Virus record (IMG/VR): IMGVR_UViG_3300047539_000055
Direction: 5' to 3' (one strand)
DNA from: a virus
Lineage: Duplodnaviria; Caudoviricetes
DNA length: 64,000 nucleotides
Shown here: in pieces, positions 280 through 9,841 of the stretch
Numbering within the stretch: the stretch's first letter is position 1
Layout: every line of letters starts with the position of its first letter
Notes under the pieces: generated by a model
The model's input: only the letters and a program-made list of their open reading frames with translations
Told to the model about the DNA's origin: nothing
The model's database searches: none
Translations under genes and position numbers: made by a program

Positions 280-465
280 GGGGAGTTGGTGGAACGGCAG
301 ACACGGCCAGCCAAAAGCTGGTGACTGAGATAGGGCGGGAGGCGCGAAGTGACGACTTCATATGCGCTACTTCCTGTTTGGGTTAGAAGCTACATGACGA
401 TGTATTAAAGACCCTTAACTGATAATCAAAGTCAATTGTAGGTTCGAATCCTGCACTCCCCACCA
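280..465 (+). ncRNA. Oversized tRNA-like RNA (Leu-type scaffold, ~115-nt variable-arm insertion)
   Basis: Acceptor GGGGAGT/ACTCCCC+ACCA, Leu/Ser-type D arm GTGGAACGGCAGACAC, T arm GTAGG-TTCGAAT-CCTGC; 186 nt. Confidence 0.8.
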
Positions 466-5658: not shown

Positions 5659-5733
5659 GGTCCCATAGCTCAATGGACAGAGTACCGGTTTACGAAACCG
5701 ATGATACAGATTCGACTTCTGTTGGGATCACCA
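5659..5733 (+). tRNA. tRNA-Arg(ACG)
   Basis: Loop TTACGAA, CCA. Confidence 0.9.
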
Positions 5734-5760
5734 AGTTTAGAATGAGGATACACTATTACA

Positions 5761-6327
5761 ATGATAAAAATAAGACAATGTAAACATTGTAATGTTCAAA
5801 TAGAAAGTGGAGTTTCAGATTTTGCCAATCATACTAGATGGTGTGCTAAAAATCCAAAGGTTGCAGATTATAAAAAAGATAATGCAACACGAGGACAAAA
5901 AATAATTGCATCAAGATTTGGTACATTTCAAAATTATGATGTAAAATGCAACGTATGTTCTAAATGTTTTCAAGTCAATGAACGAGAAAAAATTTTTCCA
6001 AGTAAGAAAAAATATTTCTGTTCTAAAATATGTGCTTGCTCTGTTGGTGGAAAGGCAAGAGCAATCAAACATTACTTGGCAGACTCAGATGTAAGTTATT
6101 TAGTGGTGGCTTGGAGATATCATGAAAGAAAATGTGTTGTTTGTAAAGAAGTAAATGTTGTTGCTGTTCATCATTTAAATGGAAATCATGATGATAATGA
6201 TCCAAAAAATTTAGTTCCGTTATGTCCTACGCATCATACATATATGCATAGCAGACATAAAACAAAGATTATCAATATAGTCAATGACTATGTTGTAAAG
6301 AAATGGAGTTTGAAATATGGGTCGTAG
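5761..6327 (+). CDS. HNH homing endonuclease
   Basis: CVVC...VHHLNGNHDDNDPKNLVPLCPTHH; N-terminal zinc fingers. Confidence 0.85.
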   Translation: MIKIRQCKHCNVQIESGVSDFANHTRWCAKNPKVADYKKDNATRGQKIIASRFGTFQNYDVKCNVCSKCFQVNEREKIFPSKKKYFCSKICACSVGGKARAIKHYLADSDVSYLVVAWRYHERKCVVCKEVNVVAVHHLNGNHDDNDPKNLVPLCPTHHTYMHSRHKTKIINIVNDYVVKKWSLKYGS

Positions 6328-6675: not shown

Positions 6676-6748
6676 GTCCCAGATTGTTGGGTCATGAGTT
6701 GGATTTGAAGCCAAACATGGACAGGTTCAATTCCTGTTAGGGACGCCA
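6676..6748 (+). tRNA. Degenerate tRNA-like gene (Gln TTG-like, 8-nt loop)
   Basis: Intact T arm ACAGG-TTCAATT-CCTGT, GTCCC/GGGAC acceptor, G73-CCA; TTGG/CCAA stem with loop ATTTGAAG; poor D arm. Confidence 0.55.
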
Positions 6749-7222: not shown

Positions 7223-7296
7223 CAGGGGGTAGTGTAGAGGCAGCATCCAAGTTCTGGAAACTTGTGGCGGAATATCGTAATTTCCTTCCCTGACCA
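7223..7296 (+). tRNA. tRNA-Pro(TGG), atypical
   Basis: C1:G72, A73, loop TCTGGAA (C33, A37), T loop ATCGTAA. Confidence 0.72.
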
Positions 7297-9748: not shown

Positions 9749-9841
9749 GTTGGGGAACTCTAAGTAGATTGAGCGCGGTCTGCAAAACCGTTGAGAACCG
9801 TAAAATCGGTCTAGTGGGCGCAAGTCCCATCCCCAACTCCA
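9749..9841 (+). tRNA. tRNA-Cys(GCA) with long variable arm
   Basis: GTTGGGG/CCCCAAC, U73-CCA, loop CTGCAAA, V arm ACCG/CGGT, T loop CGCAAGT. Confidence 0.78.

Follow-up and report, generated by a model that had tools for sequence, protein, structure and literature searches.

A tRNA-shaped RNA gene with an oversized, twin-hairpin variable arm in a T4-type jumbo phage

Positions 280–465 of the 64,000-nt stretch of virus record IMGVR_UViG_3300047539_000055 analyzed here (the window) hold a 186-base gene on the + strand that comprises a complete tRNA cloverleaf and one oversized part. The locus raises a simple question: does this gene make a tRNA that decodes, is it a tRNA gene in decay, or does it lend the tRNA shape to some other task? 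The window is part of a metagenomic contig of ~353 kb from a T4-type jumbo phage. The phage encodes a Gp23 capsid protein and a portal of T4 type, and its family B polymerase has ~40% identity to the enzymes of Agrobacterium phage Atu_ph07 and Klebsiella phage RaK2. We take the element to be, probably, a carrier RNA in the shape of a tRNA and not a working decoder. The explanation we favor, with a probability of about 0.4, is a stable RNA derived from a tRNA-Leu that would be cut by RNase P, would probably be chargeable by leucyl-tRNA synthetase (LeuRS) and would display a twin-hairpin module, in the manner of the T4 species 1 RNA. A recently disrupted tRNA gene, which we consider somewhat unlikely, is the main rival.

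The first-pass annotation of this locus had described a 186-nt tRNA-like gene with an intact acceptor stem, a CCA end, a Leu-type D arm and a T arm, and each of these parts was found where it had been placed. Along the + strand, the element reads as follows.

280–286, + strand: 5′ strand of the acceptor stem, GGGGAGT; seven Watson-Crick pairs with 455–461, probability 0.95 in the unconstrained fold
287–305, + strand: U8 and G9, the D arm (289–304 by itself) and G26
306–322, + strand: hairpin in the anticodon position, GCCAG-CCAAAAG-CTGGT; pairing probability 0.87
323–433, + strand: three-way-junction domain of 111 nt in the variable-arm position, as given by the constrained fold; closing-helix probabilities 0.63–0.76
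333–379, + strand: arm 1, with helices 333–340/372–379 and 341–345/364–368 and an apical hairpin at 346–359
380–414, + strand: arm 2, the shorter, with helix 380–384/410–414 and the apical hairpin TACAT-GACG-ATGTA at 391–404
434–437, + strand: linker AAUU, whose last U reads as U48, the Levitt partner of A15
438–454, + strand: T arm, GTAGG-TTCGAAT-CCTGC, with G53:C61, T54, T55, C56 and A58
455–465, + strand: 3′ strand of the acceptor stem, ACTCCCC (pairing with 280–286), A73 (462) and an encoded CCA (463–465)

The third acceptor pair is G3:C70. The D arm combines a 3-bp stem (GTG/CAC, with G13 opposite A22) with the loop A14 A15 C16 G18 G19 C20 A20a G21, and the nucleotides of the core tertiary contacts are all kept (U8, A14, A15:U48, G18, G19, A20a, G53:C61, T54:A58, T55 and C56). 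The hairpin in the anticodon position can be read in two ways, as 5 bp closing the 7-nt loop CCAAAAG or as 6 bp closing the 5-nt loop CAAAA; in the former, the loop runs C32 C33 A34 A35 A36 A37 G38.

Measured against a canonical tRNA, the element possesses the acceptor stem, discriminator and CCA, as well as D and T arms with their conserved core, and departs from it in lacking a U33 anticodon loop that fits its identity, in the size of its variable region and in escaping both ARAGORN and Rfam. The element is not among the 17 tRNAs that ARAGORN recognized in the window. None of the 4227 Rfam families, the tRNA family RF00005 included, matched the element, either at the gathering score in a search of the whole window or at E values up to 10 within positions 200–560, where the output was noise of at most 15 bits. 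The first-pass annotation had allowed that a known intron or Rfam family might account for the element; no Rfam family, intron or ribozyme was matched. It had also set the element apart from transfer-messenger RNA (tmRNA), and this distinction holds: a tmRNA has G3:U70, a tag frame, pseudoknots and a length of ~260–400 nt, whereas the element has G3:C70 and 186 nt and received no tmRNA call from ARAGORN or Rfam. When the first 16 kb were scanned for the acceptor and T-arm frame (a 5-bp T stem with a T-loop-like loop, then a 7-nt strand complementary to an upstream 7-mer), the element, ordinary tRNAs and a few spurious pairings were recovered, and nothing else.

What, then, is the oversized part? 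The insert between the anticodon-position and T stems spans 323–437 (115 nt), its GACT/AGTC-closed portion 323–433 (111 nt). The ~115-nt insertion reported earlier, closed by GACT/AGTC and bearing two GACG-capped arms, is present in every respect. It leaves the tRNA core where a type-II variable arm exits and is closed there by a helix, so the L-shape can survive its presence. Two closing helices were identified, 323–326/430–433 (GACU/AGUC) and 329–331/425–427 (GAU/AUC). With the four tRNA helices enforced, the remainder of the minimum-energy fold is a three-way junction whose helices have probabilities of 0.63–0.95. The two inner helices of arm 1, which ends in the apical hairpin GAAGT-GACG-ACTTC (346–359), reach pairing probabilities of 0.91–0.98 even without constraints; arm 2 reaches 0.89–0.93 with the tRNA frame enforced and ~0 otherwise, when a competing pairing with the T stem takes over. 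The RNA as a whole folds better than dinucleotide shuffles (z = −4.1).

Both 5-bp hairpins are capped by the same loop and closing pair, UGACGA. The stems beneath differ at four of five pairs, each difference being two-sided with Watson-Crick pairing kept, and the closing U-A is the one pair they have in common. Not one of 100,000 shuffled inserts contained two Watson-Crick 5-bp tetraloop hairpins with the same loop and closing pair. The + strand of the window holds 13 pairs of neighbouring hairpins, and this is the only one of them to share its hexamer, where ~0.013 would be expected. If the stems may include G-U pairs, twin-loop coincidences become common, so that it is the clean stems that carry the argument; on that footing, chance is an unlikely source of the repeated UGACGA loop. 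Kissing of the two loops, or their pairing elsewhere in the RNA, was considered and dropped: GACG is not self-complementary, and CGTC is absent from the element.

To trace the origin of the frame, its segments were compared with the tRNA genes of the phage. Positions 287–305 are identical to the window's tRNA-Leu(AAG) at 18 of 19 positions and to its tRNA-Leu(UAG) at 16 of 17, and with a covariance model built from the element (R1) the two tRNA-Leu genes ranked directly after the element itself. The acceptor and 5′ segment is closest to the window's tRNA-Ser(GCU) (9/10), and the first 10 nt of the tRNA-Ser(GCU) of one relative (G001) are identical to it; the T arm, acceptor 3′ strand and CCA (439–465) match the window's tRNA-Ser(GCU) at 22 of 26 positions. 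The second acceptor pair is G2:C71, as in Ser tRNAs; the Leu tRNAs of the phage have C2:G71. Judged by these matches, the identity of the element is Leu-like but mosaic, a Leu-type D arm being joined to a Ser-type acceptor and T arm. The first reading of the D arm as "Leu-type" is therefore upheld; the acceptor stem, with its G2:C71, and the T arm resemble those of tRNA-Ser(GCU).

For the E. coli enzyme, the LeuRS determinants are A73, A15-U48 (essential), G18G19, A20a and the D/T-loop contacts, and both the anticodon arm and the variable arm are dispensable (PMC9976931). The element carries the full set (A73, A15:U48, G18 G19, A20a, U8:A14, G18:U55, G19:C56 and U54:A58). Because all E. coli LeuRS determinants are present, and because the two arms in which the element is odd are dispensable, leucine charging is plausible. 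Charging by seryl-tRNA synthetase (SerRS) may occur as well.

Would such a molecule decode? The first-pass annotation had pointed to the missing U33. The loop is indeed non-canonical (C33), but this is not a mark of non-function, as the tRNA-Ser(UGA) of the same phage (12086–12180, loop CCUGAAA) also has C33, is otherwise canonical and is called by both ARAGORN and the Rfam tRNA model (51 bits). A weaker tRNA-Pro(UGG)-like gene at 7223–7296 (loop UCUGGAA) shares the feature, so C33 alone says little in this phage. Of 978 variants with the insert deleted in silico that ARAGORN accepted, 603 were read as having the anticodon AAA. An alternative anticodon loop within the insert, CTGATAA, called Ile(GAU) in the same scan, was rejected, its flanking stem pairing at three of five positions. 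The remaining oddities are AAA on a Leu/Ser-type body, the optional sixth stem pair and, above all, the size of the arm.

We propose the following course for the RNA. The element lies in a + strand run of small genes, 11 nt past the upstream stop and 17 nt before the next start, with a promoter-like site ~650 nt upstream. No terminator-like site was found on the + strand around it, so it probably sits inside an operon and would be transcribed together with these small genes. Its leader (TTT before G1) and trailer (CCA followed by TATTTTGAAAGG) resemble those of the phage's ordinary tRNAs; because they are of the same type, RNase P would be expected to cut at G1 and 3′ trimming to halt at the encoded CCA, as for the other tRNAs of the phage. 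The tRNA core would then confer stability and probably permit charging by LeuRS, and the bulky arm and odd loop (C33, AAA) would bar the RNA from normal decoding. In the last and more speculative step, the working part would be the twin-hairpin module, most likely as a site for two copies of a protein or for a dimer, or else as a decoy for a tRNA-targeting factor; a dimeric protein is our simplest guess for the partner.

Several further observations are consistent with such a carrier RNA: the tight packing between genes, the lack of any intron, ribozyme or tmRNA match, the presence of other tRNA-like or structured RNAs in the corresponding slot of relatives, and the fact that relatives encode an RNase P RNA of their own. 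The earlier preference for function over decay keeps its footing in the intact tRNA frame and in a repeated loop that chance would rarely produce; the step from there to function is one that we infer. A more specific version would make the element a natural tRNA scaffold, its RNase P-processed, LeuRS-chargeable body being only a chassis from which the UGACGA tips are shown to a dimeric partner, either a tRNA-targeting host factor that the RNA would soak up or a phage protein such as the predicted WGR-fold protein encoded just upstream. In this detailed form we hold the proposal to be unlikely.

Comparative data and some features of the fold weigh against the carrier RNA. The element occurs on five metagenome contigs from five samples, which are 100% identical over all of their overlap (up to 7.6 kb) and represent one strain. 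Being invariant, the five copies carry no covariation information and hence lend no support of that kind to the structure or the loops. The insert was found in no other phage (50,697 phage records, IMG/VR) and in no prokaryote genome among the matches listed. In a blastn search of the phage records, the matches were confined to T-arm segments of ordinary tRNAs, and scanning IMG/VR for exact 25-mers and 17-mers yielded no match or else chance ones in coding regions. A structure-aware pattern (two TGACGA and a T loop) returned 13 matches in IMG/VR, none with the motifs in hairpins; among the matches listed for 185,579 prokaryote genomes (at least 121), the same pattern gave one with both motifs in G-U-tolerant stems, without tRNA-like context, and the rest listed were mostly haloarchaeal tRNA-Trp introns. 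When model R1 was applied to the window, to 31 loci and to three IMG/VR records of relatives, ordinary type-II tRNAs were all that it detected.

The gene directly upstream offered a second way to look for relatives. Its protein has 16 homologs at 61–77% identity, plus 25 loci from a metagenome scan (best 86%), and the insert was present in none of the homolog contigs read through. The closest relative, with 86% identity in this neighbouring protein, has no RNA at all beside that gene. In the others, the slot downstream is occupied by a tRNA-like RNA, a stem-closed RNA, plain spacer or another gene, so that in several relatives the upstream-protein gene is followed by a structured RNA. TRNA-like RNAs of ~90 nt were seen in L022–L024 (L022:621–712), in L019:755–848 and probably in L034, at a contig end. 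Those of the L022 type have a 7–8-bp acceptor stem and a T loop TGTAAGT or TGCAATT, lack both CCA and a real anticodon arm, share a CTAATAACAT stretch after the D arm, and look like a small family of their own. A 90-nt RNA closed by a long stem fills the slot in L009 and L028–L030. The tRNA-like slot RNAs have no detectable relation to the element. The first-pass annotation had named an unconserved insertion as a reason to abandon its proposal; what was found is identical copies from a single strain and, elsewhere, nothing or other elements, which weakens the finding.

As to the fold, the stability of the insert is modest, ~2 standard deviations over shuffles, and 9 of 200 shuffled inserts fold as well. 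Left unconstrained in silico, the RNA gains 3 kcal/mol by breaking the T arm and pairing the 5′ strand of its T stem with the 5′ strand of hairpin 2. A tandem-duplication origin of arms 1 and 2 is likewise unsupported and was rejected, the whole-arm alignment not being significant (p = 0.19).

Some of these points also speak for a young pseudogene. On this account, a type-II tRNA gene from a fast-turnover set was hit by the 111-nt insertion and by mutations in the anticodon loop, and has no RNA function left, being at most an RNase P cut site that parts the flanking messages. The confinement of the insert to one strain in the searches made, a slot that in relatives is empty or holds unrelated elements, and an insert fold only ~2 standard deviations better than shuffles would all be expected. 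The Leu/Ser mosaic of the frame suggests recombination among tRNA genes, and tRNA birth and death are evidently active in the window, as several degenerate tRNA-like genes lie there (6676–6748, 7223–7296 and 9749–9841). What makes us consider this account somewhat unlikely is the state of the gene itself: the acceptor, D, T and core tertiary positions are all undamaged, the insertion point and closing helix are exactly such that the L-shape is kept, and identical twin loops on compensated stems are hard to attribute to chance. A mobile-element origin of the insert was rejected, as there is no repeat family, no target duplication and no inverted-repeat termini other than the closing helix, and the 69.5 kb of phage sequence examined contain the insert just once. 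Phages also lose useless DNA fast, and here the element is tightly packed between two genes.

An interruption could also be one that is removed. If the 111-nt domain were an intron of an undescribed type at the variable loop, splicing would leave a ~75-nt class-I-like tRNA. ARAGORN accepts the sequence without the domain as a tRNA, homing endonuclease genes are abundant in the phage, and the ~105-nt intron of haloarchaeal tRNA-Trp has C/C′ boxes GUGACGA/AUGACGA, the same heptamers as the loops of the element. Still, we regard an intron as very improbable. The group I, group II and small-ribozyme models were unmatched at E values up to 10; 111 nt is too short for group I; the insertion lies at the variable arm, not in the anticodon loop; no bulge-helix-bulge motif flanks it; and the box order is CUGA, C, C′, CUGA instead of C, D′, C′, D. 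The host appears to be bacterial, judging from the T4-type capsid and polymerase and from the bacterial RNase P RNA in relatives, and bacteria are not known to have either the splicing endonuclease or the box C/D proteins. A box C/D reading of the insert was rejected on box order, on the lack of a bulge-helix-bulge and on the bacterial type of the phage, and the heptamer match is taken as chance. The odd CCAAAAG loop would, besides, persist in the spliced product. A further rival is a working decoder, a giant-armed tRNA with anticodon AAA (or inosine 34), charged by LeuRS (or by SerRS or phenylalanyl-tRNA synthetase), with which the phage would read UUU or UUY codons or recode them. C33 is no disqualification where tRNA-Ser(UGA) has it, the phage uses A34 anticodons in Arg(ACG) and Leu(AAG), the frame without the insert passes as a tRNA in ARAGORN, the LeuRS determinants are intact, and relatives possess amber-suppressor tRNA(CUA) genes, so decoding is manipulated in this phage group. 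However, the phage already encodes a tRNA-Phe(GAA), missense would be expected from a Leu identity with a Phe anticodon, the stem in the anticodon position can extend to 6 bp and leave a 5-nt loop, and AAA anticodons are hardly known in nature. A branched arm of ~110 nt far exceeds the class-II arms reviewed in PMC7609411, and on the ribosome it would be likely to collide with the tRNAs next to it. A decoder is thus improbable in our view.

The carrier RNA can be set beside several described systems. The genes rnaC (species 1) and rnaD (species 2) of T4 are likewise stable-RNA genes of a T4-type phage, lying among tRNA genes and small open reading frames (ORFs). The 139-nt rnaC stacks a canonical T arm (CCGGG-TTCGAAT-CCCGG) on an acceptor-like stem, and some 105 nt of additional hairpins lie in between. 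It resembles the element in architecture and setting only, the two having no sequence similarity; the acceptor-like stem of rnaC has two U-U mismatches, and rnaC has no CCA and no recognisable D or anticodon arm, whereas the element keeps the whole cloverleaf and holds all of its extra RNA in the variable arm. The role of rnaC and rnaD is still unexplained (PMC3014915, PMC12685909). With bacterial type-II tRNA-Leu (RF00005), the element shares the acceptor stem, A73, CCA, the 3-bp D stem, G13/A22, A20a, A15:U48 and the T arm; in both, a helix leaves the core at the position of the variable arm, and the element's nearest sequences are the phage's own tRNA-Leu genes. It differs in an arm of 111–115 nt that is branched, in the loop CCAAAAG with C33 and no Leu anticodon, and in G2:C71. 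Variable regions are classed as 4–5 nt long or as class-II arms of >10 nt (PMC7609411).

Irregular tRNAs of soil and peat bacteria and phages, comprising allo-tRNAs, selC* tRNA-Cys and 8/4 tRNAs (Mukai et al. 2017, PMC5389517), also have long variable arms, occur in phage tRNA clusters and have in part been proposed to be regulatory. Theirs are 8/4 or 9/3 frames with unbranched "long" arms, while the element is a 7/5 frame with a larger, branched one. A gene resembling the 8/4 irregular tRNAs (PMC5389517) does occur in the window, at 9749–9841: it is tRNA-Cys(GCA)-like and stands beside a normal tRNA-Cys. It has an 8-bp acceptor stem, a 4-bp T stem, the T loop CGCAAGT and a long variable arm. 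In YrlA, a type of Y RNA of bacteria and phages, the ends do not make an acceptor stem with CCA but form a Ro-binding helix, and the gene adjoins rsr. YrlA is comparable to the element in joining a tRNA-like module to an extra structured module, which in YrlA binds the protein Ro60/Rsr (Chen et al. 2014, PMC4201824). The ends of the element, in contrast, form a true acceptor stem with CCA; it has no Rfam match, and no Ro60-like gene was found among the window ORFs tested (64 kb of the 353-kb genome). Engineered tRNA scaffolds, for their part, have the anticodon arm replaced. As we propose for the element, they place structured cargo on a tRNA body and have it stabilised by tRNA processing (Ponchon and Dardel; used in PMC3753655). 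Those scaffolds are man-made, whereas the element is a natural sequence that keeps its anticodon arm and bears its cargo in the variable arm. In the open-access literature, we found no 7/5 tRNA frame described with so large a variable arm.

In the current view, phage tRNA genes serve to counter host defences that act by cutting or disabling tRNAs (PMC10264068, PMC11555353), and the tRNA-like stable RNAs of T4 have gone unexplained for decades (PMC3014915). The element offers a clean case of a perfect tRNA body to which a large, ordered domain has been added. Should it be expressed, it would give a simple handle on such RNAs, since the twin hairpins can be mutated, or can serve as bait, with the body left unchanged. 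It would also raise the upper size of variable arms on the standard 7/5 frame and test how much cargo LeuRS, RNase P and the CCA-end machinery tolerate. If the natural-scaffold version were true, it would point to a class of phage RNAs, so far undescribed, that have a tRNA body as their base. Even as a decaying gene, the element would illustrate the turnover of phage tRNA sets through recombination and insertion.

The wider setting includes a dense tRNA array 4.5 kb downstream of the element and, in the phage as a whole, many homing endonuclease genes. The two genes that flank the element are the following.

2–268 (full gene L011:5481–5786), + strand: upstream gene, 101 aa, cut by the window start; predicted small WGR-fold protein
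483–695, + strand: downstream gene, 70 aa; its ribosome-binding site begins 8 nt past the CCA

The upstream protein was modeled by AlphaFold with a pLDDT (predicted local distance difference test) of 79, and the leading Foldseek matches in the PDB are almost all WGR domains of PARP1/2/3 (TMq 0.51–0.61, with weak E-values of 0.03–0.3). Sequence searches gave no Pfam or PDB match, so that the attempt to assign WGR by sequence failed and the fold search is what supports it. As WGR is a nucleic-acid-binding type of domain, the predicted fold makes this protein a lead, not evidence, in the search for a partner of the RNA. The downstream 70-aa protein has a single homolog, its own paralog encoded at 894–1088. 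The paralogous genes share stretches of 94–98% identity (472–538 versus 883–949 and 639–685 versus 1032–1078), which include the ribosome-binding site and start region.

TGACGA occurs 45 times in the whole 64 kb, against 24 expected, and four of the copies lie within 350–698. Two of these four are the hairpin loops of the element; the others fall at the stop/start overlap of the next two genes (683–698). At this overlap, AAGTGACGA repeats the 9-mer of hairpin 1. Antisense pairing between the copies at 350–698 was excluded, as all have the same strand sense. The four may possibly constitute a shared protein site.

The searches also brought up other RNAs. In haloarchaeal tRNA-Trp introns (L067, L070, L071 and many others), GUGACGA and A/UUGACGA serve as box C/C′. 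These boxes are a variant of the RUGAUGA consensus and are conserved across many genera. Among the relatives of the phage, bacterial type-A RNase P RNA was detected at L025:2808–3140 and L018:5603–6252 (183 and 118 bits; gathering score 100), the L018 copy being ~280 nt longer and enclosing an ORF at 5725–6096; no RNase P RNA gene is present in the 64-kb window. The tRNA clusters of relatives contain two to three tRNA genes with a CUA anticodon, i.e., amber suppressors (L017:1290–1544 and L018:753–1354), which hints at TAG recoding in part of the phage group. Finally, in all sequence examined, only one further frame of >95 nt combines a perfect acceptor stem with a canonical T loop; it comes from the relative L026. 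This 121-nt tRNA-frame RNA (L026:1978–2102) has the acceptor stem GCGGCTT/AAGCCGC, the T loop TTCAAAT and no CCA, and in place of the anticodon arm it bears a ~65-nt arm with two TTGTAAACAA repeats.

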